This document shows, piece after piece, positions 1-10,294 of a stretch of DNA of 10,294 nucleotides (positions are counted from its first letter, which is position 1; every line of letters begins with the position of its first letter). This DNA is from a virus: UHGV virus genome UHGV-1651392; one strand, 5' to 3'. The translations under genes and the position numbers were made by a program. The notes below the pieces were generated by a model. It was not told the origin of the DNA and did not search any database. It saw only the letters and a program-made list of their open reading frames with translations.

Positions 1-48
1 GATCCGAACGTTACAGAAAGAAAAAGCGCCCCGTTGCTAGATAACAGG

Positions 49-78
49 CAAAACAAAGGCGACCGGGATAGGTCGCCA
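49..78 (-). terminator. Putative rho-independent terminator for leftward transcription
   Basis: Perfect 7-bp inverted repeat GGCGACC (59-65) / GGTCGCC (72-78) with a 6-nt loop. On the minus strand it is followed by a T-rich run (complement of 49-58, CTTTGTTTTG). Lies downstream of the leftward genes at 381-560 and 144-323. Confidence 0.35.
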
Positions 79-143
79 GTGGGAACAAAGGAAATCAAAC
101 GCATCGCCAACAATGCCAGATTTGCGGCTGGTGGGCAATGTGA

Positions 144-323
144 TCAGTCAGATTTGGTTCGTTCCAGGGTTTGCAACGAGAGCTTTTTCCTGTGCTCTTT
201 AAGGAATTTCTCAAGAGCAAACGAACAAGGTGCGAATCTTTCTGATTCATGTTCATGCGCTATATTTTTGCGTCGTCTCTTACGAGTTGGTGATGGTGTT
301 TTTGTTGATTCTGTGTCGCTCAT
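144..323 (-). CDS. Hypothetical small basic protein (59 aa), possibly co-transcribed with the upstream RHH gene
   Basis: Hand-translated minus-strand ORF just under the 60-aa track cutoff: MSDTESTKTPSPTRKRRRKNIAHEHESERFAPCSFALEKFLKEHRKKLSLQTLERTKSD. ATG is complement of 321-323, stop is complement of 144-146. Only a weak RBS; sits between the RHH gene and the terminator. Could be spurious. Confidence 0.25.
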   Translation of the reverse strand: MSDTESTKTPSPTRKRRRKNIAHEHESERFAPCSFALEKFLKEHRKKLSLQTLERTKSD

Positions 324-380
324 GGTGCTGCCCTGTAAAGCAATGCGCCTGCGTTCCTCAAACTATGGCGCTGATAGTGG

Positions 381-560
381 CTATTCCTGCTCTTTGGCCT
401 TGCGCCGCTGGCGGCGTTTGATCTCGCCTTCAAGTGCTGAAACGATAAATTGTCCCGTGCTTTCGCCAGCTTCCTTTAAGTTTTCTACAGCGTCGGCTAT
501 TGCGTGGGGAACTCGTGCTTCAAGTTTCTTCGATTTTGCATTAACGGCCTTCGTTGCCAT
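381..560 (-). CDS. Ribbon-helix-helix (CopG/Arc/MetJ-type) DNA-binding regulator, 59 aa; putative repressor of the element
   Basis: Internal ATG (complement of 558-560) of track ORF 381..677 is preceded by a strong RBS (AAGAGGA, complement of about 567-573). Product MATKAVNAKSKKLEARVPHAIADAVENLKEAGESTGQFIVSALEGEIKRRQRRKAKEQE shows the RHH pattern: short beta-strand (LEARVP), helix A, GES turn, helix B, basic tail. The longer track start would add a hydrophobic extension encoded over the operator repeats, so it is rejected. Confidence 0.7.
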   Translation of the reverse strand: MATKAVNAKSKKLEARVPHAIADAVENLKEAGESTGQFIVSALEGEIKRRQRRKAKEQE

Positions 561-580
561 ATCTGGATTCCTCTTTATTA

Positions 581-661
581 GGTGGCTGACAGTATACACA
601 CAAGAAATCGAAAAAACACTATTGACGTGGCTGACACCTGTTACTAATATGGTGGCTGACA
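581..661. promoter_or_regulatory. Candidate operator: three direct repeats of GTGGCTGACA between divergent genes
   Basis: Exact 10-mer GTGGCTGACA at 582-591, 627-636 and 652-661 (first and third extend to GGTGGCTGACA). The second lies in the promoter spacer and the third over the predicted transcription start. Confidence 0.5.
622..650 (+). promoter_or_regulatory. Sigma70-type promoter for the rightward operon (-35 TTGACG, 17-bp spacer, -10 TAATAT)
   Basis: TTGACG at 622-627 and TAATAT at 645-650 with a 17-bp spacer; about 110 bp upstream of the first rightward CDS (761). Confidence 0.5.
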
Positions 662-760
662 CTTTTAGTTGTTGCAAGCAACAAAACGACGAAACCCCGC
701 ACTGTTGGAGCAGTAACGGGGCCTCTAACCACCAACGATAGCGAAAGTATCGAGGTAGCT

Positions 761-964
761 ATGTTAAATCATACCACACACCCGCAAGGGCGGGATTCGC
801 ACAACCTGAATAAATACATCTGGCGTTTTATCGCCCTGAGCACGGCACAACCGCGCGTGATTACCATCGAGGCCACCAGCGAACAGAAAGCCCGTCAGCA
901 ATCCCCGGCTGGCTGCGTGATGGTATTTACTGCTCGCATCCGTCAGGGGGAATACTATGCGTGA
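761..964 (+). CDS. Small hypothetical protein (67 aa), first gene of the rightward early operon
   Basis: Track ORF with GAGG at 752-755 just upstream of the ATG at 761. Its stop overlaps the next start (ATGCGTGA). My unverified recollection is that similar small proteins in P4-like/PICI islands are annotated Icd-like. Confidence 0.55.
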   Translation: MLNHTTHPQGRDSHNLNKYIWRFIALSTAQPRVITIEATSEQKARQQSPAGCVMVFTARIRQGEYYA

Positions 965-1214
965 TGAACGATTTATTCTTCTGGAGCAAAAATTCAGTGA
1001 AGCGCCAAAAAATGAAATTGATGCTCTTTTGCATATCGCGAATATGCTAAAAGTAGCAACGTTCCTTATAGTTTCGAATCTGGAGCATGAAACGGCGTTA
1101 GATATACTGAACAGTGCTGTCGATTATTCTGAATATATTGCCGAGGATAAATACAGGCAATTACCAGATTTGTTAGCCCATAAATATAAAGAAGAACCTC
1201 ACACCGGGAAATAA
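957..1214 (+). CDS. Hypothetical protein (85 aa), noticeably AT-rich gene
   Basis: Track ORF; start overlaps the upstream stop by 8 nt; RBS GGGGGA upstream. Looks clearly AT-richer than its neighbours by eye (not counted). Confidence 0.55.
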   Translation: MRDERFILLEQKFSEAPKNEIDALLHIANMLKVATFLIVSNLEHETALDILNSAVDYSEYIAEDKYRQLPDLLAHKYKEEPHTGK

Positions 1215-1216
1215 AC

Positions 1217-1519
1217 ATGAAGAAGATTAAATTTACTGGCTTAAATGCCAGCGGACAGACTCATCCGAAAATCAGGATCGGGGATATTTTCCGGGATAAA
1301 TATGGTGACAGCGTGGTTATTAATTCCGTGTATGAACGGCACATTACATACCGCCGCGCAGGGTATGACTATGACTGTGTGATGCCCGTTCATCAGTTCC
1401 GGCGTGATTTTTCACTGGTATGTGCAGCACCACGCAGTAAGCCCACCAGTAAAGAGAAAGCACGGGCAAATATTCAGGTAATAAAGAACATGATTAACGC
1501 ATTCAGGGGCAAGAAATGA
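1217..1519 (+). CDS. Hypothetical protein (100 aa)
   Basis: Track ORF starting 2 nt after the previous stop; its stop overlaps the next ATG (ATGA at 1516-1519), suggesting coupling. Confidence 0.55.
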   Translation: MKKIKFTGLNASGQTHPKIRIGDIFRDKYGDSVVINSVYERHITYRRAGYDYDCVMPVHQFRRDFSLVCAAPRSKPTSKEKARANIQVIKNMINAFRGKK

Positions 1520-3642
1520 AACGCGCACCGAATTTAAAGCACCAGCCGAAAGACAAAATGACGGAGGTGATTATCTTTGCGGGTAGTGATGCCTGGGCAC
1601 ATGCGAAAGAGTGGAGCGAATGGGCCGGAAAGCATATTGCGGCAGATGATACACATCCAGTTATTCTTGGACCGGAACAACTGGCGAGTCTGGCAGACAC
1701 GCAAATCATCGACAAAGGGCGCTATTACGTGCGCGTTTATCGTGCTGGTGAAATATCAGAGCAGCACCTTACACAGATAGCGACACTGCTTGCAGTGGCG
1801 GGTGTGAAGGAGGCGCGTTGCTACCGCAGCTTTGTTGATCAGCAGCCGGAGGACTGGACACCGCGCATGACTGGACTGAAGGATGATGCGGAACGCGGTA
1901 ACAGTCTGGTGATCAACCTTCCGGCGAAGACAAATTTCACCGGAAATTATGATGACGAATTAAAGCCTCGTGTTGAAAGTCGCGTCGATGGTGTTTTCTG
2001 GGTAACGCCCAAAGTGGACAAGCAGTCAGGCGAAATTATCCGGCCTGAGACGTGGTTATGTTCTCCGCTTGAACTACTGGGAACAGGAACAATCGGCAAA
2101 GAGCATTACCGCGTGATGCGCTGGAAAAAACCAGCAAACCATGAGGTCATTACAATGGCGGTCCCGTGCGGAGGCATTGGTGACCGTGACGGCTGGCGGT
2201 TGCTGAAAGACCACGGCCTTAACGTGACGACCAACGGCAAATACAGGGCTATCCTGGCTGACTGGATGCAGTTAAGCGGAAACCATGAGGAATGGCAGTT
2301 AAGCACAACAACGGGGTGGCATTTTGGTGCGTACATCATGCCGGATGGTTCGATCATCGGTGAATCAGAGAAACCCATCCTGTTTACCGGAAAAACTGCC
2401 GCTGTTAATGGCTATTCCGTGGCGGGAACAGCGGAGGGCTGGCGCGATACCGTGGCACGGCTGGCTGGTGGTAATCCGTCCATGATGCTGGGTGTGGCGG
2501 TATCGCTATCTGCACCATTAATCGGGCTGGTGGGTGCTGACGGCTTCGGGGTTCATCTTTTTGAGCAATCATCAGCAGGTAAAACCACCACACAGAACAT
2601 TGCCTCAAGTTTATGGGGAGAGCCGGACGCGCAACGGCTGACCTGGTACGGAACGGCGTTAGGTATCGCCAACGAGGCCGAAGCACATAATGACGGGCTG
2701 TTACCCCTGGATGAAATAGGCCAGGCCGGAAACGCACGGGAGGTGTCCACGTCAGCCTATACGCTGTTTAACGGTTCCGGGAAATTACAGGGGGCGAAGG
2801 ACGGCGGCAACAGGGAGATAAAACACTGGCGTACGGTGGCAATCAGCACCGGAGAAATGGACGTTGAAACATTCCTCAAAACGGAAGGGATAAAAATTAA
2901 AGCGGGGCAGCTTGTCCGTCTGCTTAACGTACCGATGGAAAAGGCCTCGCAGTTTCACGAATACAGCACCGGAAAGGCGCACGCAGACGCGTTAAAAAAT
3001 GCCTGGACAGAAAATCACGGGGCGGCAGGTCGTGAGTGGGTTAAATGGCTGGCAGGTCACCAGCAGGAGGCAAAGGACGCGGTAAAGGCATGTCGCGAGC
3101 GGTGGCGCAACCTGATACCGGAGAGCTACGGCGAGCAGGTTCACCGTGTGGGGGAAAGATTCGCCGTACTGGAGGCCGCGCTTGTGCTTTCCGGTCATGT
3201 TACAGGCTGGGATGTTCAGGCGTGCCGTGATGCAGTTCAGCATAACTTTAATGCCTGGGTGAAGGAATTCGGCACGGGCAACAGGGAATTTAAACAGATG
3301 GTTGAACAGGCTGAGGCGTTTTTGTCGTCGTTCGGGTTCAGTCGATACCTTCCCTATCCAAACAGCGACGAGCGTGATTTACCGATTAAAGACCTTGCCG
3401 GATACAGAAAGGGGAGCATCAGAAACGAAGATGAGGAGTTCCGTTTTTACACGTTCCCGCATGTGTTTGAGGGTGAGATAGCACAGGGATTTAATCCGTC
3501 TCACTTTGCCCGCGCGTTGAGTGCTGCCGGAATGCTGGAAGCGGGAGGCGACCGCCGTTACAAGAAAAAGGCGCTCGGCAGGATTGGCGGGAAGCAGCAT
3601 ATTTTTTACGTGCTGATGTTCCAGCCTGAAGCAGAATATTAA
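1516..3642 (+). CDS. Replication protein: P-loop NTPase of the DUF927-like primase/helicase type (708 aa)
   Basis: Long ORF with coupled start. Walker A-like motif SSAGKTTT (about 2566-2592) and Walker B-like hhhhDE motif LLPLDEIGQ (about 2698-2724). Directly followed by an iteron cluster, as expected for a Rep/initiator gene. Confidence 0.8.
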   Translation: MKRAPNLKHQPKDKMTEVIIFAGSDAWAHAKEWSEWAGKHIAADDTHPVILGPEQLASLADTQIIDKGRYYVRVYRAGEISEQHLTQIATLLAVAGVKEARCYRSFVDQQPEDWTPRMTGLKDDAERGNSLVINLPAKTNFTGNYDDELKPRVESRVDGVFWVTPKVDKQSGEIIRPETWLCSPLELLGTGTIGKEHYRVMRWKKPANHEVITMAVPCGGIGDRDGWRLLKDHGLNVTTNGKYRAILADWMQLSGNHEEWQLSTTTGWHFGAYIMPDGSIIGESEKPILFTGKTAAVNGYSVAGTAEGWRDTVARLAGGNPSMMLGVAVSLSAPLIGLVGADGFGVHLFEQSSAGKTTTQNIASSLWGEPDAQRLTWYGTALGIANEAEAHNDGLLPLDEIGQAGNAREVSTSAYTLFNGSGKLQGAKDGGNREIKHWRTVAISTGEMDVETFLKTEGIKIKAGQLVRLLNVPMEKASQFHEYSTGKAHADALKNAWTENHGAAGREWVKWLAGHQQEAKDAVKACRERWRNLIPESYGEQVHRVGERFAVLEAALVLSGHVTGWDVQACRDAVQHNFNAWVKEFGTGNREFKQMVEQAEAFLSSFGFSRYLPYPNSDERDLPIKDLAGYRKGSIRNEDEEFRFYTFPHVFEGEIAQGFNPSHFARALSAAGMLEAGGDRRYKKKALGRIGGKQHIFYVLMFQPEAEY

Positions 3643-3665
3643 CTTCCCTGTGTGAGGTAAAAAGT

Positions 3666-3790
3666 TGCGGGTTATGCGGGTTATCCTGTGTATAAGTTAA
3701 TTAAATGCATGATTAAAAAGGAAATCAATAACCCGCACGTAACCCGCAAAACGGCAGTTATAACCCGCAAATGTGCGATTGTAACCCGCA
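3666..3790. repeat. Iteron cluster, putative replication origin (or Rep/regulator binding array)
   Basis: 9-mer TAACCCGCA direct copies at 3729-3737, 3740-3748, 3761-3769 and 3782-3790 (spacings 11, 21, 21 bp). Two tandem inverted copies TGCGGGTTA at 3666-3674 and 3675-3683. They flank an AT-rich core at 3684-3728. Confidence 0.55.
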
Positions 3791-3852
3791 AAATTTCACT
3801 GTAAGAGTGTAAACAAGCGTAACTATCACGTTAAAACCGGAGAACAAACAGC

Positions 3853-4278
3853 ATGACGGCGCAAATATCAGCTTACGGGCGGCTGGTGGCTGACCCGCAG
3901 TTAAAGACCACCAGCAAGGGCACACAAATGGCGATGGCGAGTATGGCGGTCCCCCTTCCATGCAATCAGGCAGATGACGGAACGGCGACGATGTGGTTAT
4001 CCGTCCTGGCGTTTGGCAGACAGGCTGACGCACTGGCAAAACACCACAAAGGCGAACTGGTGAGCGTGGCCGGTAACATGCAGGTGAGCCGGTGGACGGG
4101 CCAGAACGGCGAAACGAGGCAGGGATGGCAGGTTATCGCAGACAGCGTAATCAGTGCGCGAACGGCGCGACCGGGCGGCAAAAAAGGCCAGCAGGGGCAG
4201 GCTACTGATGCACTGAACAGGGCAAAGCAACAGACAGGCCAGCACGATGATCCGTACGGGGACGGGATACCGTTTTAA
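3853..4278 (+). CDS. ssb: Single-stranded DNA-binding protein (141 aa)
   Basis: RBS GGAGAA at 3839-3844. OB-fold-like core with conserved aromatic positions, a Gly/Gln-rich linker and an acidic C-terminal tail ending DDPYGDGIPF (compare E. coli SSB DDDIPF). Confidence 0.85.
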   Translation: MTAQISAYGRLVADPQLKTTSKGTQMAMASMAVPLPCNQADDGTATMWLSVLAFGRQADALAKHHKGELVSVAGNMQVSRWTGQNGETRQGWQVIADSVISARTARPGGKKGQQGQATDALNRAKQQTGQHDDPYGDGIPF

Positions 4279-4314
4279 TTCACAACAGCGAACAGAGTAA
4301 TTACAGGGGAAGGC

Positions 4315-4812
4315 ATGACAAAGCTGACCATAAACAGAAAACCGAAGGGCATTTACGGCACGCCGCAGAAAACAGCACAGGCGGCGCAGCAGCAGAATAA
4401 AACCACATCGGCGCATAAAGTGATGCCAGATAACCAGAACACACAGCAGAAGCTCACAGGAGCAACACCGCGGCGGCGTATGACCAAACAGCAGCGTAAA
4501 AACCGCAGACGCGTTAACCGTCTTATTGAGCTATGGCCTGAATTATTCAGCCCGGAATCACCTAAGCCGCTTAAGGTGGGGATATTTGACGACCTGATAC
4601 AGGATATTGCCGCGAGAGGTATTTCACTCGGACAGGGAACACTACGCGCAACGCTGGCGCGTTATGTGCAGACTCCGCGCTATTACCGCGCCCTGGTAGC
4701 TGGTGGCGCGCGTTACGACCTGAAAGGCCAGCCGTGCGGCGAGGTAACACCACTACAACAGACGCACGCAGGAAAACTACTGGAGGAGATGAATGGAAAT
4801 AGAAAGAAATGA
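4315..4812 (+). CDS. ProQ/FinO-family RNA-binding protein (165 aa)
   Basis: RBS AGGGGA at about 4303-4308. Segment [27 protein letters not shown]...[35 protein letters not shown] closely parallels the ProQ N-terminal FinO domain (PLKIGIF.DL ... LR.AL..Y..S.RY ... R.DL.G.PCGE). Confidence 0.85.
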
Positions 4813-5209
4813 TCACGCACATGGTCGCCGTGCAGGTGATCACATTGTGGATGAAATTGCGAAAAAACAAAGAGTTGACATTGTTGTCAGTGTCACAGTC
4901 GAGAGCGCGAAGCGCCAAAATAAGCGTATAAATGATCATTCAGATGTACATGGTGTGATCACTCGTTTACGCCAGACTTTTGTAACTCGTGAAGAGATGA
5001 TTGAAGCTATTGACCAGCATACAGCATGTATCAGCGTCAGGGATATACCGGAGATCATTGCTAACTACTTCATGATCACCAGACGCCTTTACCGGAGAAA
5101 AGACAAGAGCACGGTTAACCGTCTCCTGATGTCTGATATTCGCGAATACCTGCAAGAAAGAGGCTATGTGAATCCACCAGAACAGCACTACGGAAAAGTC
5201 GGAGGCTAA
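4793..5209 (+). CDS. Hypothetical protein (138 aa), overlapping the 3' end of the ProQ/FinO gene
   Basis: Track ORF; ATG at 4793 preceded by GGAGGA at 4782-4787 (5-nt spacer); overlaps the upstream gene by 20 nt. No recognisable motifs. Confidence 0.6.
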
Positions 5210-5293
5210 CTAAAACCCTGTACCGAAGAGCGGCGGCGCGATGGGGTGAAGTAATGCAGTTGGGGTACTGACAAGGAACGGTATTGCATATCA

Positions 5294-5443
5294 ATGCGAC
5301 GACTGGAATGTTCCAGGAAGGCACAGAGGCCACCGAAGCAACCGGATAATTTAGAAGACCTGAAACGGTCGCTTAAACGCACTGAAAAAGAAATGGGGAT
5401 AGATGGGATCGGGAAATCAGTATGGCGTAACTACCAGAAGTAA
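5294..5443 (+). CDS. Possible small basic protein (49 aa); alternatively part of a small RNA
   Basis: Hand-translated: MRRLECSRKAQRPPKQPDNLEDLKRSLKRTEKEMGIDGIGKSVWRNYQK. Stop TAA at 5441-5443 lies 6 nt before a strong terminator. No convincing RBS (AAGGAA is 15 nt upstream). Confidence 0.25.
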   Translation: MRRLECSRKAQRPPKQPDNLEDLKRSLKRTEKEMGIDGIGKSVWRNYQK

Positions 5444-5449
5444 GCACAG

Positions 5450-5473
5450 AGCCGGAGCAATCCGGCTTTTTTT
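5450..5473 (+). terminator. Rho-independent terminator
   Basis: Perfect 7-bp stem AGCCGGA (5450-5456) / TCCGGCT (5461-5467) with GCAA loop, followed by a run of seven T ending at 5473. Confidence 0.65.
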
Positions 5474-5575
5474 GGGGCTGAAATCAATCAATCTGTTTTT
5501 GTGATAGAAATATGTTTATCTACCACTTTTTCAGATCAATAATGTGCATAGTTTAGTCAGTAAGAGGAAATTGCT

Positions 5576-5782
5576 GTGAATTGTATTAACGACCTGAACA
5601 CAGGCGATGTCAGAGGTGGTTCCGTTCATCTGGATGCACAGACCGTGATGCGCCTTAAGCAGTACAGAATCGACCATGTGAACAATCACCCTGATCAGCC
5701 ATTACCAGGCGTGGCGCAGATTGTCAGACATGCCGTAAACGCCTGGCTTAATCAGAATGGTTTTGCATCGGGGGGTGAGTAA
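5576..5782 (+). CDS. Small protein (68 aa), GTG start; possible ribbon-helix-helix-like regulator
   Basis: GTG at 5576 preceded by a strong RBS AAGAGGAAA (5562-5570). Pattern SVHLDAQTVMRLKQY ... GVAQIVRHAVNAWLNQNG is compatible with a strand-helix-helix fold (weak). Stop overlaps a short downstream reading frame. Confidence 0.5.
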   Translation: MNCINDLNTGDVRGGSVHLDAQTVMRLKQYRIDHVNNHPDQPLPGVAQIVRHAVNAWLNQNGFASGGE

Positions 5783-5878
5783 TGAATCGCTGGTACAGCA
5801 TCAAAGCGGAGGGACGCCAATGTTATTTAAATCAGGTTTTATGAATTCTGGTACACGATTCAAAACAGGGGGTTACTG

Positions 5879-8410
5879 ATGCCAGTCGTACCAACAGTAT
5901 CCGGACGCCAGGTTGAGAGCCGTGGAGTTCAGTCAGCAGGCTTGCAGACGTTTTCTCAGCCAGATATTGGTGATGCTTTTGTTCGGGCAGGGACAGAGGC
6001 AATTGATGTTCTTGGTCAGGCAAAACAGCGCGCCAATATTGCCTTGGTTCAGGAGGCATCCCTTAAACTCAGTCAGACAGGCAGTGATCTGCTGAATAAT
6101 CCTGAAACAGGATTGCTTAACTTGAAAGGGAAAAATGCTATTGGAAAAGGCCATGAGTATACACAGCAGTTTGATGCTCAGATCGAACAACTGGCTATGT
6201 CGCTGCCGGATGAACAGGCTCGTAATGCTTTCATGCAGCAGGCGCAGCAGCAGCGTATTCAGTTCGCTACGCAGGCCGGGAGGTACGAGATAGGGCAAAT
6301 AAATGCCTACGAAGAAGGCCAGTTTCAGGCGACACTGCTGAATAATGGTAAAAATGCCTCAGCATTATATGGCGACAACGCAGCATACATATTGGCTAAT
6401 ACGCAAACTTTCCAGCAAATTGAGGATTACGGTATTGCGCATGGCTGGAGCGACGAGCAAATCCAGGCCAAGAAAATCGAGTTTAAAGAAGCAACAGCAA
6501 AAGCAACTGCTCAAAATGCTATTGGAGCAAACTATCTTCAGGTAAGACAGCAAAATGGCGAGTTAAGCGATACTGCTGCTGGATCTCGCCGTGCTGTAGC
6601 AGATAGTGGCTCTTCCGATCGTACCCGCGGTATACGCAACAATAACCCCGGCAATCTTGAATACAGCAAAACTAATCCGTGGGTTGGGCAGACTGGTGAT
6701 GATGGTCGCTTTGCCAAATTCGAAACCCCTGAACACGGTATTCGCGCGCTTGGTCGCAATTTGCTGTCGTATCAGCGTCAGGGTTATGACACCATCAGCG
6801 AAATAATTAATCGCTGGGCACCGGCCAGTGATGATAATAAAACTGATGCTTATATACGGGCAGTATGTGCTCAGCTCGGTGTAACTCCTGACCAGCCGCT
6901 TGACGCATCAAATCCTGACACACTGAAATCTCTGTGCAAAGCAATTATTCATCATGAGCAAGGCAGTCAGCCGTACAGTGATCAGCAATTGGCCGCTGGC
7001 GTTAGTGCCGCACTGGGGCTTTCTCAGCTACCGACAAAAAATAAACGTTATACCGGTGTAGCCTGGTTCGATGCTTTAAGTGAATCAGATCAGGCCAGCG
7101 TGTTGCGACAGACGGATGCATTAGCCAGACAGCAGCAGGCTGAATATAGAACGATGCTCGAAAGCCGGGTTCGCGATGCAACGGCTGCGTATATGCGTGG
7201 CGTTGAATTTCCTAACCCGCCTGGTGAGGGTGAGTTCATTGCTGCTTATGGTGTCAGAGAAGGAAACCTGCGATATACCGAGTTCAGAAATTTGCAGATC
7301 GCCGGACAGTATATAGGCTCTTTCCGCAACATGCCGACAAGCAGCATTACCGCATATGTTGAGCAATTACGCCCGGATACTGGTGAGACAGGGGAGGGGT
7401 ATGCGTCTCGTGCGGAGTTATTCGACCGGGTATCGGCGGCAGCCACGAAGGTAATAACCCAGAGGCAGAATAATCCGTTTAGTGCAGCGGTGGAAATCGG
7501 AGCCTATAAGCCGATCACCAGCAACAACCCTGACGACATCACTGCCGAGGTGGCTAACCGTTTCTCGTCGCAGGAAAGCTTACGCGCGTTGGGAATTAAT
7601 GCCCCACTCCTCAACAGTGAAGAGGCGGCTGCGCTGGCACAGCAGGTGCGCGGCACTCAGAACGTTGACCAGACAATTAAACTGTTGCAGAGCATGGGGG
7701 AGAAGCTGCCTGCGCCAGCAATACGGCAGGTGGCATCTGTAATTGCTCCGAACAGTGCGGCAACAGCCTATTCTGCGCTGCTGCTGGGCACGCCGGATAA
7801 CCAGTACGACAACACCAGGCCGACGATCCCATATAGTCAGTTCATCGGGTATAAGCCGACGATGAACAAGTACGACGTTGCAAAGGTTATTCTTTCCGGC
7901 GACCAACTACTGAATCCGACGAAGGCCATGAAGAATGCGGGCATAACTCCGGTACAGTTGCCGAGCGAAGATAAGATGAAAGACGCTTTCGACGAACAGG
8001 TAGGTAATGCATTTGCCCGTAACCCGCAGTTACGCCAGATCAGTTATAGCCTTTTCAAAGCCGCTTACGCAGGAATAGCTTATCAATCTGGTGATGCCTC
8101 TACGGTAAGAACCAGTATGCCTGATACAGACATTGTAGCTGATGCCGTGAAGTATGCTACTGGCGGTATATACAATGGTTTTAATGGCGGCGACGTTGTA
8201 ATGCCTTTTGGCATGGATAAATCTACTTTCAAAGATCGCTATACCACATCTGCGAAACAAGCACTGAAAGATGCCGGACTTAACGTAAATGCAGTGTCAA
8301 ATTTCACGCCAGTTAATATCGGCAATAACCGGTATCGGCTTGTAAATGGTAGCGGACGCTGGGCAACAGATCCCAGAACCAATAAAGCTATTGTCGTGAG
8401 GGTTGAATAA
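5879..8410 (+). CDS. Large protein of unknown function (843 aa); possibly a virion/cell-envelope-associated or effector-type protein
   Basis: Long ORF with RBS AGGGGG (5866-5871). Gln/Ala-rich, probably helical N-terminal third. Central segment with conserved-looking motif RTRGIRNNNPGNLEYSKTNPWVGQTGDDGRFAKFETPEHGIRALGRNLL. Stop overlaps the next ATG (TAATG at 8408-8412). Function not assignable from sequence alone. Confidence 0.8.
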   Translation: MPVVPTVSGRQVESRGVQSAGLQTFSQPDIGDAFVRAGTEAIDVLGQAKQRANIALVQEASLKLSQTGSDLLNNPETGLLNLKGKNAIGKGHEYTQQFDAQIEQLAMSLPDEQARNAFMQQAQQQRIQFATQAGRYEIGQINAYEEGQFQATLLNNGKNASALYGDNAAYILANTQTFQQIEDYGIAHGWSDEQIQAKKIEFKEATAKATAQNAIGANYLQVRQQNGELSDTAAGSRRAVADSGSSDRTRGIRNNNPGNLEYSKTNPWVGQTGDDGRFAKFETPEHGIRALGRNLLSYQRQGYDTISEIINRWAPASDDNKTDAYIRAVCAQLGVTPDQPLDASNPDTLKSLCKAIIHHEQGSQPYSDQQLAAGVSAALGLSQLPTKNKRYTGVAWFDALSESDQASVLRQTDALARQQQAEYRTMLESRVRDATAAYMRGVEFPNPPGEGEFIAAYGVREGNLRYTEFRNLQIAGQYIGSFRNMPTSSITAYVEQLRPDTGETGEGYASRAELFDRVSAAATKVITQRQNNPFSAAVEIGAYKPITSNNPDDITAEVANRFSSQESLRALGINAPLLNSEEAAALAQQVRGTQNVDQTIKLLQSMGEKLPAPAIRQVASVIAPNSAATAYSALLLGTPDNQYDNTRPTIPYSQFIGYKPTMNKYDVAKVILSGDQLLNPTKAMKNAGITPVQLPSEDKMKDAFDEQVGNAFARNPQLRQISYSLFKAAYAGIAYQSGDASTVRTSMPDTDIVADAVKYATGGIYNGFNGGDVVMPFGMDKSTFKDRYTTSAKQALKDAGLNVNAVSNFTPVNIGNNRYRLVNGSGRWATDPRTNKAIVVRVE

Positions 8411-10245
8411 TGTCTGATGTTTTTTCTTTGGCTCCAGAAGGTCAGGCATGGATTGACGACAAAACAGTTGCCAACCCAGCAAGGCCAGAAGACTACGATC
8501 CGACTCCCTTCCAGGGTTCAGGTACTGCACTTTTGAGCGGCGTGGCGGAGGGGGCTCTCGGTCTCGCGCAGTCTGCCGTCGGATTCAGCAAGCGCCTGAT
8601 TAGCGATCCGGCATTTACCGCAGACGTGGCACCGACAGTTAATATTTTTCGGGAGATGTTCCCTGATGCTGACAAAACACTGAATGATACATACGACACG
8701 ATCGGAAAACAGTTACAGGATGCCCGCAGCTATGTGAAGCCTGATGCAGGCAGCCAGGGAATGGCGGCTGAGGTATTAAATGAGGTTGGTAAATTTGTTC
8801 CTGCAATCGGAACAACTATGTTTGGTGGTCCGCTCATCGGCGCTGCTACAGCCTTCAGTTCTACGTATGAGCAGTCCTATCAGGATTTTAAAGGGAAGGG
8901 AGTAGACGAGGCTACAGCGCGTAACCTGGCAACGCAGCAGAGCCTTTTCAATGCTGTGGGTATGGCCTTACCCGCTGCCGTCGGCACCACACTGGCAACG
9001 CGCATTGCCTCAGGTGTGGCAATCAACACCGGATTCGGTGGACTGAACCGTTACTCAGTAGGCGCAACACTGGAGGAAAAAGGCTACACGGAGATGGCAA
9101 AACAGTACCGGGTATTTGACGGTCAGGCGATGTTAGTCGATGCCGTTTTAGGCGGGGTCTTTGGTGGCGTTCATCACCTGACTACCCATAATAACCATGA
9201 TGGTACAGAGTCGAACATTTCTGCAGAAGAAATAAAATCAACTTTTGGTGAACATTATCAGCAATCTCCTGATGGTAACATTGAGTCAATGGTTCGTGAT
9301 TTATCTGATTCAGGAGTAATAGAACTTATTAATGAACCAGCAATAAAAAATAGTGATGGAGAAATACTTCTGAATAAAGGTCATGTGACAGTAGCTTCCG
9401 GAAAAGAACCAATAATAAGAATAAATATTAATGGATTAAAAGACCATGAAGAACTGTTAGAAACCCTTCATCACGAGGCGCTTCATCTTGAGCAGCGCCA
9501 TTACCCTGACTGGAAGGCCAGAAAGCTAGCTAATGCTGTACTTAAATCTGCAAACAAGCATTCTGACTATCCTGAATTTGCATATGGGATGTCACAATAT
9601 TATGAATATAAGAAAAGGGGTGAGTACCCTGAAACATATCCTGAGTGGTTGTACGCTGAAGAAGTTGCCGCACATGCAGTAAATCCATCTCTAAAGACAA
9701 GCGTTTCATCATGGGAAAAAATTATTTCAGGTTTTAAAGCCTATATATTCAGATACAGTGGTATTCAGGTTGGAACCGTTACACCTGAGCAGTTACGGTT
9801 ACTCGTAAGTATGCGTCTTCGCAATATGAAACTGGAAGCCGCAGTAGAAAAAGTTTTTGGTATCCGGGCGAGGGAAAGAATAAAACCAAGCGATATTGAT
9901 GCAGCCCACATTTTGAATGAGGGGCTTCATTACGATATTGAATCGTCACCAGTGCTTCATACCAGCAATGAGAGCATCAACAGCCATGTTGACGCCATGG
10001 ATGAAGCATACAGGCAACTTAATGATGGTCAGCCTGTAAATGTTGGGGGGATGGCGCGAGGGCTTGATGGTCCATTGCGATCAGATATATCTGATACTTA
10101 CCAAGAGCAATACCATGAAATACAAAAGGTTTTTGAAGAAAATGGTGTCAGATACGAAACATCATCAGAGCCAATTAGTGAATCGCCTGTCCCTCGTGAA
10201 CCGCCCCGGGAATCCTGGAGACTAAACTTCCTGAGAAAGAGGTAA
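8410..10245 (+). CDS. Modular protein (611 aa as read): GC-rich Gly/Ala-rich hydrophobic N-terminal trunk plus AT-rich C-terminal domain with HExxH motif; 3' end fused to and truncated by an IS element
   Basis: Coupled start with RBS GAGGG (8398-8402). N-terminal 257 aa contain repeated small-residue hydrophobic segments (for example GTTMFGGPLIGAATAF, ALPAAVGTTLATRIASGVAINTGFGG, VLGGVFGGV). Sampled 60-nt blocks fall from 57-68% GC to 28-35% GC at about 9180. HEALH motif at 9472-9486. The last 16 codons (from 10197) are IS-derived, so the native C-terminus is missing or altered. Confidence 0.75.
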   Translation: MSDVFSLAPEGQAWIDDKTVANPARPEDYDPTPFQGSGTALLSGVAEGALGLAQSAVGFSKRLISDPAFTADVAPTVNIFREMFPDADKTLNDTYDTIGKQLQDARSYVKPDAGSQGMAAEVLNEVGKFVPAIGTTMFGGPLIGAATAFSSTYEQSYQDFKGKGVDEATARNLATQQSLFNAVGMALPAAVGTTLATRIASGVAINTGFGGLNRYSVGATLEEKGYTEMAKQYRVFDGQAMLVDAVLGGVFGGVHHLTTHNNHDGTESNISAEEIKSTFGEHYQQSPDGNIESMVRDLSDSGVIELINEPAIKNSDGEILLNKGHVTVASGKEPIIRININGLKDHEELLETLHHEALHLEQRHYPDWKARKLANAVLKSANKHSDYPEFAYGMSQYYEYKKRGEYPETYPEWLYAEEVAAHAVNPSLKTSVSSWEKIISGFKAYIFRYSGIQVGTVTPEQLRLLVSMRLRNMKLEAAVEKVFGIRARERIKPSDIDAAHILNEGLHYDIESSPVLHTSNESINSHVDAMDEAYRQLNDGQPVNVGGMARGLDGPLRSDISDTYQEQYHEIQKVFEENGVRYETSSEPISESPVPREPPRESWRLNFLRKR

Positions 10246-10294
10246 ACAGGATGACTAAAAATACTCGTTTTTCCCCCGAAGTCCGTCAACGGGC
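10197..10294 (+). mobile_element. Left end of an IS3-family insertion sequence (IS629/IS1203-like), continuing beyond the window
   Basis: Sequence TGAACCGCCCCGGGAATCCTGGAGACTAAACTTCCTGAGAAAGAGGTAAACAGG followed by ATG ... MTKNTRFSPEVRQR matches my recollection of the IS629-type left inverted repeat and OrfA start. The exact boundary (10196/10197) is from memory and needs confirmation. Confidence 0.6.
10251..10294 (+). CDS. IS3-family transposase OrfA, N-terminal fragment (partial at window edge)
   Basis: ATG at 10251 with RBS GAGG (about 10240-10243); translation MTKNTRFSPEVRQR(A) is characteristic of IS3-family OrfA helix-turn-helix proteins. Confidence 0.7.
   Translation, partial: MTKNTRFSPEVRQR

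Follow-up and report, generated by a model that had tools for sequence, protein, structure and literature searches.

The open reading frame (ORF) at 8410-10245 on the plus strand of the virus genome UHGV-1651392 encodes 611 amino acids (aa). We analysed this ORF together with the whole 10,294-nucleotide (nt) stretch in which it lies, called the window here. It is likely an ejection protein of the epsilon15 gp16 type, truncated by the insertion sequence (IS) IS629, into which a metallopeptidase (MPTase) domain of the kind seen in polyvalent phage proteins has been inserted. The gene is carried on a satellite-like island resembling EcCIMP1, and the inserted domain may act in self-processing of the protein or as an effector. 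The first-pass annotation had described a chimeric protein with a GC-rich N-terminal trunk and a swapped, AT-rich C-terminal module bearing an HExxH motif, and had proposed that it is a polymorphic toxin, a phage-delivered effector or a defence effector. Its observation was partly confirmed and its interpretation was partly supported, as described below. The gene is divided as follows.

8410..10198, plus strand: native part of the gene, covering codons 1-596 out of the 686 codons of an epsilon15 gp16 homologue, from DNA matches and homology.
8410..9180, plus strand: conserved trunk at the N-terminus, aa 1-257, rich in Gly/Ala and containing four moderately hydrophobic helices, from alignment, phrog_1145 and hydropathy.
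9181..9879, plus strand: AT-rich central cassette, aa 258-490, at the place where other alleles have a linker or coiled-coil region, from GC content and DNA comparison.
9271..9822, plus strand: putative core of the zincin-like MPTase-type domain, aa 288-471, from a hidden Markov model (HMM), phrog_10089 and hhalign.
9472..9486, plus strand: HEALH, aa 355-359 (H355, E356, H359), candidate zinc ligands and catalytic base, from invariance in the alignment.
9658..9663, plus strand: E417-E418 in AEEVAAHAV, candidate third zinc ligand in a downstream helix; the EE pair is invariant in the alignment.
9880..10198, plus strand: remaining portion (aa 491-596) of the C-terminal domain, which is conserved from IKPSDIDAAH onward.
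10199..10294, plus strand: end of IS629 (IS3 family), which supplies codons 597-611 and the stop codon at 10243-10245.

The 611-aa ORF is a real frame from an ATG to a stop codon, but its length and its C-terminal tail are derived from IS629, and the native protein has 686 aa. Up to 10198, the window gene shows 99-100% identity to copies in 37 E. coli genomes, which are complete genomes, and in every one of them the DNA match ends at 10198. The stretch 10196-10245 matches at 100% the ends of elements in Stx phages annotated as IS629 of the IS3 family. The junction between gp16 and IS629 is ambiguous by 2 nt (TG at 10197-10198). The IS629 sequence at the junction reads TGAACCGCCCCGGG..., followed by the transposase start ATGACTAAAAATAC, with its ATG at 10252. 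IS629 has the same orientation as gp16, and the window ends inside this copy. Because the matches stop at 10198 and the following sequence is identical to IS629, residues 597-611 and the stop codon are encoded by the IS, and the last 90 native residues are lost. In the intact allele (WP_001286072.1, 686 aa), the frame runs on as ...SPVPR/AESAFSS..., as seen in record L001. The end of the 611-aa ORF is thus an artefact, a truncation product of the 686-aa allele made by IS629, and this is a lesson for annotation of ORFs that look "chimeric". No IS is present at the 10198 site in any of the 37 island-bearing complete E. coli genomes (0/37), so that the source strain has a private insertion, which also parts gp16 from gp17. 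The window copy does not have a complete frame; it ends at native residue 596 of 686, the invariant C-terminal ...SKVYSVAAACFLRNP is missing, and 15 IS-encoded residues stand in its place. It is a disrupted member of the epsilon15 gp16 family, and it is most likely inactive because the invariant last 90 residues are lost and gp17 is separated by IS629.

The variable low-GC part of the gene is a central cassette and not a C-terminal module. GC content is 53.2% at 8410-9180, with 51% GC at third codon positions (GC3), and it is 38.5% (GC3 26.6%) in the 699 nt of the cassette at 9181-9879. A likelihood scan placed the end of the high-GC block at 9186, and the switch that had been noticed near 9180 was therefore confirmed. 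GC content recovers only partially after the cassette, to 43.9% at 9880-10198 and to 46.5% over the full native C-terminal part. The cassette is approximately the lowest-GC stretch of 699 nt in the 10.3-kb window (the minimum is 38.1%, at 9187) and in the whole 19.1-kb island, and its z-score against non-overlapping windows is -3.5. DNA identity to epsilon15 gp16 is 80.7% over nt 1-770 of the gene and 73.1% over nt 1470-2061, whereas nt 771-1469 show no similarity to it at the DNA level. On the basis of the GC and GC3 statistics and of the breakpoints in DNA similarity at nt 770 and 1470, the cassette is compositionally foreign and horizontally acquired.

Alignment of 14 homologues revealed that aa 1-257 and aa 491-686 are nearly invariant and that the middle is variable. 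The homologues fall into length classes according to the central region. The class of 521 aa has a Pro/Ala linker of 60 aa, that of 629-636 aa has a coiled-coil-like segment, and that of 686-690 aa has the HExxH segment. Thus, the idea of a swapped module was right in that the module is exchanged and foreign, but it lies at aa 258-490 and is followed by a conserved C-terminal part; likewise, the expected conservation of N-termini was observed, but it is the centre and not the C-terminus that varies. The N-terminal trunk was correctly described as Gly/Ala-rich and hydrophobic. Its 257 residues contain 25% Gly+Ala, and hydropathy peaks are located at aa 41-59, 129-147, 179-205 and 235-258 (Kyte-Doolittle 1.2-1.34). 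No moderately hydrophobic Gly/Ala-rich segment of this kind was found by Kyte-Doolittle analysis in the rest of the protein.

The trunk belongs to a podophage virion protein. It matches phrog_1145 with an E value of 6e-107, and the window protein is 82% identical in aa sequence to epsilon15 gp16 over the alignable 66%, which consists of the N- and C-terminal parts (tblastn and annotation). Hardies et al. assigned epsilon15 gp13 and gp14 as internal virion proteins (IVP) A and B, gp15 and gp16 as IVP-C-like, and gp17 as a homologue of T7 IVP-D (PMC4819975). Internal virion proteins are ejected to form a conduit across the envelope (PMC8954989; PMC5850374), and epsilon15 gp17/16 have been assigned in the literature as part of the injection device (PMC12391199). 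Epsilon15 gp16 itself (NP_848224.1, 634 aa) and its homologues in Uetakevirus and prophages share with the window protein the N-terminal trunk, the C-terminal domain, the flanking gp15 and gp17 genes and the site of central variation. They differ in that epsilon15 gp16 has a coiled-coil-like centre of uniform GC content, whereas the window allele has a 233-aa AT-rich HExxH domain, and in that they are phage-borne, whereas the window copy lies on a satellite-like island and is truncated by IS629. A second allele bearing the cassette was found on a metagenomic contig (P0003); it has 690 aa, is 70% identical, and lies in a full gp13-gp14-gp15-gp16-gp17 operon. The cassette is therefore also found in a phage structural context. 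The scaffold of epsilon15 gp16 can be said to have a permissive site in its centre, and this site captured a domain of the metallopeptidase type.

The motif HEALH was confirmed at 9472-9486, and the cassette carries, as had been supposed, a conserved downstream Glu in addition to HExxH. An alignment of 11 sequences showed that H355, E356, H359, a Trp, E417-E418 and a tail of the form G-Q-G-(V)TP-QLR are invariant. In all, about 15 positions besides HExxH and EE are invariant across these sequences, which are only 23-30% identical. We built an HMM from 10 polyvalent phage proteins, with the window protein excluded, and used 2000 composition-matched shuffles as a control. The HMM aligned aa 288-471 of the window protein to positions 5-184 of its 184 positions with 33.8 bits (E 1.6e-12 as a single test), and the best of the 2000 shuffles reached 12.5 bits. 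phrog_10089 ("DarB-like antirestriction") matches aa 269-477 with an E value of 8e-4, and the same region of phrog_10089 is matched by all 11 aligned sequences. Searches with tblastn found giant DarB-like/PLxRFG proteins of Ralstonia, Klebsiella, Serratia and Ochrobactrum podophages at E values of about 2e-3, and inspection of these matches showed that the giant proteins carry HExxH at the matching upstream position. The HExxH domain is conserved in 55 phage records, and several phage contigs of about 60 kb in IMG/VR gave direct full-length tblastn matches to the cassette domain. These comparisons indicate that the cassette domain is homologous to an HExxH...EE domain that podophages of the Bcep22, Lasta and Gervaise types carry in their giant polyvalent virion proteins.

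We also compared this domain family with the virion RNA polymerase (vRNAP) of phage N4. Iyer et al. (2017) described a region of N4 vRNAP as the founding zincin-like MPTase of polyvalent proteins (PMC5512222). Comparison of the domain family with N4 vRNAP aa 2130-2448 by hhalign gave a probability of 91.6% (E 8e-7), with HExxH and the Glu aligned and the EE pair aligned with N-E of N4 vRNAP. When the two cassette sequences were left out of the family, the probability was 81.3%; shuffles gave at most 0.5%. By these profile comparisons, the HExxH...EE domain family is related to the zincin-like metallopeptidase region of N4 vRNAP. The HEALH and EE motifs both lie in predicted helices, and the HEALH helix follows three predicted strands. 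This predicted order of a helix, three strands, the HExxH helix and a later EE helix fits the zincin core of PMC5512222. AlphaFold2 models had low confidence. The full-length protein modelled from a single sequence had a mean predicted local distance difference test (pLDDT) score of 39, and the cassette modelled with a 3-row alignment had a mean pLDDT of 53, and the fold search was uninformative. The resemblance of HEALHLEQ to the DUF4157-type motif HExxHxxQ was dropped because no Pfam score supported it.

In Bcep22 gp75 (L018, 4,602 aa), the domain is located at about aa 3486-3664, between LPD3 and LPD38 and downstream of the SLT, methylase and SNF2 modules, in a region that is not covered by Pfam. 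The window protein shares with Bcep22 gp75, Gervaise gp28, the Klebsiella ZX1/LASTA "PLxRFG" proteins and N4 vRNAP aa 2130-2448 a colinear homology of about 180 residues, the motifs of strand-HExxH-helix and EE-helix, and the tail G-x-Q-x-G-x-V-T-P-x-Q-L-R. In all of them the protein that hosts the domain is a virion protein thought to be injected with DNA. The hosts themselves are different. The polyvalent proteins are multi-enzyme proteins of 3,800-4,600 aa (SLT, methylase, SNF2 helicase and LPD domains) or a virion RNA polymerase, whereas in the window allele the domain is the sole enzymatic module and is set in a 450-aa IVP-C-like scaffold, with an identity of 23-30%. The HExxH...EE...GxQxGxVTPxQLR domain (L018, L004-L013) has no Pfam or NCBIfam model, and it could be defined as a new MPTase-type family. 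A 127-aa "partial hypothetical protein [Escherichia coli]" (P0122) is near-identical to a Ralstonia phage polyvalent protein of the Cimandef/Gervaise type, and its E. coli label is probably due to contamination or mislabelling.

The window gene lies on an integrative island. Window 1-10198 falls within a 19.1-kb island (L015:5545-24681) located at a tRNA-Gly gene beside the ETT2 locus. Direct repeats of 19 bp (TTCCCTTCGCCCGCTCCAA) flank the island; one copy lies at the 3' end of the tRNA-Gly gene and the other 19.1 kb downstream. Its genes are arranged in the order of integrase, helix-turn-helix (HTH) regulator, AntA/B, BRO-N, Icd-like, DUF4222 and DUF927 primase (window 1516-3642), followed by SSB, ProQ/FinO, a frameshifted PerC gene, the gp15-, gp16- and gp17-like genes and a 104-aa ORF. 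No capsid, terminase, tail or lysis genes were found in the gene content of the island. The cassette occurs once each in 37 of 5,426 complete E. coli genomes, always on the chromosome and with at least 99.4% identity. A sister lineage (L016) has the same core with a different integrase at a different chromosomal site, and its three large ORFs are intact. Contigs of about 20 kb with the same structure are present in IMG/VR, where they are called viral. The element has att repeats, an integrase, regulators and a primase, lacks capsid, terminase and lysis genes, and falls in the range of 10-20 kb. By this gene content, the island has the satellite architecture of a phage-inducible chromosomal island (PICI), like EcCIMP1.

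EcCIMP1 is a PICI of E. coli MP1 whose mobilising helper is Kapi1, a P22-like phage (Pick et al. 2025, PMC11773190). It resembles the window island in size (about 19-20 kb), in integration at a tRNA gene, and in gene content, which includes int, HTH, AntA/B, DUF4222, Icd-like, the DUF927 primase, an ejection-gene block and a PerC-family gene, with no capsid or terminase. The ejection-gene block of EcCIMP1 is P22-type (DUF2824, "phage DNA ejection protein" and a 906-aa transglycosylase protein), whereas that of the window island is epsilon15-type with the MPTase cassette. EcCIMP1 was mobilised experimentally. The window island is the second case, after EcCIMP1, of a PICI-like satellite with ejection genes specific to a podophage type, which points to a satellite strategy; the carriage of ejection genes matched to the helper seems to recur among PICI-like satellites.

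In the ejection block, gp16 stands between gp15 and gp17 homologues in the same order as in epsilon15. The upstream neighbour is the following.

5879..8410, plus strand: gp15 homologue, 843 aa, ejection protein with a transglycosylase-like region, from phrog_992 (E 5e-290) and synteny with epsilon15 gp15.

This gp15-like protein also matches PHROGs labelled "tail injection transglycosylase". Its stop codon overlaps the ATG of gp16 by 1 nt (TAATG at 8408-8412). In intact islands, a 918-aa gp17 homologue (IVP-D) comes next after gp16; in the window itself, IS629 is located there. The gp15-like gene (5879-8410; L015:15656-18187) is mosaic. Over the first 1,527 nt it shows 85-92% identity to coliphages of the phiV10 type (HEMP4, ZX5, phiV10), and the remainder of the block, through gp17, shows about 76-78% identity to Salmonella and Enterobacter phages of the epsilon15 type.

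The intact gp15-gp17 genes of the islands are under strong purifying selection. Between the two island lineages, gp16 has 19 synonymous changes and 1 non-synonymous change (omega 0.015), and omega is 0.155 for gp15 and 0.225 for gp17. The three large ORFs have the same length across lineages that differ at up to 15% of synonymous sites. When the cassette was compared with that of the P0003 allele, the proportions of synonymous and non-synonymous differences were 0.74 (pS) and 0.25 (pN), respectively. The omega values and the pS and pN of the cassette indicate that these genes are maintained by selection.

We propose the following mechanism for the intact island. A helper podophage would package the island, and gp15, gp16 and gp17 encoded by the island would be loaded into the capsid core. 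They would then be ejected ahead of the DNA, and the Gly/Ala-rich N-terminal trunk of gp16 might help to build or insert a conduit across the envelope. The metallopeptidase could act in two ways. In the first, it would cut gp16 itself at a flexible linker and thereby release or activate the two halves; self-cleavage has been proposed by Iyer et al. for many polyvalent proteins (PMC5512222). In the second, it would cleave a protein of the host or of a competitor at the entry site, and gp16 would then be a counter-defence or counter-exclusion effector. The earlier suggestion of a phage-delivered effector fits the present results, in that the trunk is that of a podophage internal virion or ejection protein and the module is homologous to a metallopeptidase-type domain of injected polyvalent proteins. 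T7 gp14/gp15/gp16 and P22 gp7/gp20/gp16 probably share the same mode, namely packaging in the capsid, ejection ahead of the DNA and formation of a trans-envelope conduit. Functional domains such as transglycosylases shift mosaically among ejection proteins of the T7 and P22 types (PMC8954989, PMC4819975). Differences from the T7 and P22 proteins are that sequence similarity to the window protein was not detected and that no metallopeptidase domain has been reported in them.

We further considered that EcCIMP1-like satellites might form a class that replaces the ejectosome of the helper instead of remodelling its capsid, and that the injected metallopeptidase of gp16 would be a counter-defence protease cleaving a protein that blocks entry. 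This extension is quite unlikely as it stands. If it is true, the ejection proteins would be matched to the helper, P22-type in EcCIMP1 and epsilon15-type in the window island, and the target of the metallopeptidase would be a host or prophage protein for superinfection exclusion or envelope-level defence.

Several results weigh against the view that gp16 is an injected ejection protein with a working metallopeptidase. Membership of the cassette in the N4 MPTase group is supported by a transitive chain and not by a direct match to a curated peptidase model; the two cassette sequences alone gave an hhalign probability of 0.8% against N4, which is not significant. No significant match to a curated zincin family was found in Pfam, NCBIfam or PDB sequences. 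Pfam gave no match to the whole protein or to the cassette, even at E<=10. For the domain, the best peptidase matches in Pfam were not significant (Tox-MPTase2, E 0.19; WLM, E 0.1), and NCBIfam gave nothing significant. When PDB sequences were searched with the protein and then the domain profile, the matches (mTOR FRB and proabylysin, E 0.1-1) did not rise above chance, and proabylysin, at E 1, was the best peptidase among the profile matches. An exhaustive phmmer search with the cassette as query, run on 1.84 billion representatives, yielded nothing beyond a 74-aa fragment of the protein itself. No relative of the cassette was found in a peptide-pattern scan of GTDB genomes, and tblastn against plasmids did not match it. 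A word-indexed protein search with the cassette and with a 4-sequence profile gave nothing useful; it also missed the parent protein and is thus not evidence of absence. As for the helper, epsilon15-type gp17 was found in 54 genomes, as 37 island copies and 17 diverged copies that are probably phage-borne; none of the genomes has two epsilon15-type gp17 genes, and no epsilon15-type helper prophage was found in the 37 island-bearing genomes. In the literature searched, we did not find a demonstration of gp16, or of the island copies, in virions. Finally, N4 vRNAP requires its MPTase region for encapsidation and is packaged without being processed (PMC5512222), so that a non-proteolytic role is possible.

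The main rival is built on this last point. The cassette would be homologous to the polyvalent MPTase but non-catalytic, serving as a spacer, as a determinant of packaging or encapsidation, or as a protein-binding module in the capsid core. The requirement of the N4 region for encapsidation favours this role, as does the lack of a significant match to curated peptidase families. Since a 60-aa Pro/Ala linker or a coiled-coil-like segment is also tolerated in the centre of gp16, this region may play a mainly steric part. However, HExxH, EE and the further invariant positions are retained at 23-30% identity, as expected of an active site, and the cassette is under purifying selection. We consider a non-catalytic role unlikely, though it deserves to be taken seriously.

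It is very unlikely that the gp15-gp17 block is no more than the dead relic of an epsilon15-like prophage that decayed and was fused to a satellite backbone, in which case the cassette would have no current function. The island does lack capsid, terminase and tail genes, the same genomes contain no epsilon15-type prophage, the block has suffered IS insertions (IS629 in the window and ISVsa5 in gp17 of TUM9803), and the neighbouring PerC gene is frameshifted. However, ORF lengths are kept despite the synonymous divergence, with omega of 0.015-0.23, and the block travels with two different integrase/att modules. EcCIMP1, which was mobilised experimentally, has an analogous P22-type block. The dN/dS values, together with the existence of two integration modules, led us to reject this reading.

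It had also been suggested that the protein is an effector of defence or abortive infection brought along as cargo of the island; such a protease would be activated on infection and would kill the cell or the phage. Satellites often carry defence genes, the island is PICI-like, and proteases occur in defence systems. However, the gp15-, gp16- and gp17-like proteins and three neighbouring proteins had no match in PADLOC (PADLOC-DB 2.0, E<=0.01). Within a translationally coupled operon of virion proteins, one that bona fide phages share, the gene takes the middle place, and the cassette allele also occurs in a phage structural operon. The defence reading was thus not borne out, and we regard it as highly improbable. 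A polymorphic toxin for inter-bacterial competition, with a delivery trunk and a variable C-terminal toxin, is scarcely credible. The window protein does share with Tox-MPTase toxins a compositionally foreign HExxH module on a modular carrier and variation among alleles at a single site; toxin domains of the metallopeptidase kind are known, and Tox-MPTase2 gave the weak, non-significant match above. However, the module is C-terminal in those toxins and internal here, with the last 196 residues nearly invariant, the trunk is a phage virion protein (phrog_1145; epsilon15 gp16) and not that of a type V, VI or VII secretion system (T5SS/T6SS/T7SS) or RHS, the downstream gene in islands and phages is the 918-aa gp17 homologue and not a small immunity gene, and other alleles hold linkers or coiled coils and not other toxins.

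The gp16 family, MPTase domains in injected polyvalent proteins, mosaicism of ejection proteins, and PICIs with ejection-gene blocks have already been described. In the literature searched, we found no description of an MPTase-type domain inserted in an IVP-C-like gp16 scaffold, of such a domain on a satellite-like island, or of the Bcep22-type HExxH domain as a defined family. The metallopeptidase-type domain is otherwise known only from giant polyvalent injected proteins. At 686 aa and with just one enzymatic module, the gp16 allele would be a minimal and genetically tractable "polyvalent" protein, and it could be used as a tool to study the function of the MPTase, namely self-processing versus cleavage of host targets. 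Ejection proteins of podophages, which come into contact with the recipient cell before any other phage protein, are poorly understood.

We also made several observations on the rest of the island. The PerC-family gene (about 5219-5444) is frameshifted in the window and in both annotated island lineages, and a 49-aa ORF is left at 5294-5443. The 1-nt length difference between the window and L001 falls in this PerC stretch. Downstream of ProQ/FinO, a 138-aa ORF (4793-5209) matches the PHROG "anti-repressor Ant" at aa 57-127 (E 3e-26), and its N-terminus matches a PHROG labelled "terminase" at aa 5-68 (E 4e-10); this ORF could bear on the interaction between the island and its helper. In TUM9803 (NZ_CP135671.1, 126311-130405), the island gp17 homologue is split by the IS4-like ISVsa5, which is a second independent IS in the ejection block. 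Outside the window, the interval between the first hypothetical gene and the HTH regulator contains tandem 33-nt repeats (L015:7940-8005) and 17-nt repeats (7882-7920; TTACCATCACCCTTAGGGT...), which could be operator or iteron-like sites of the island.

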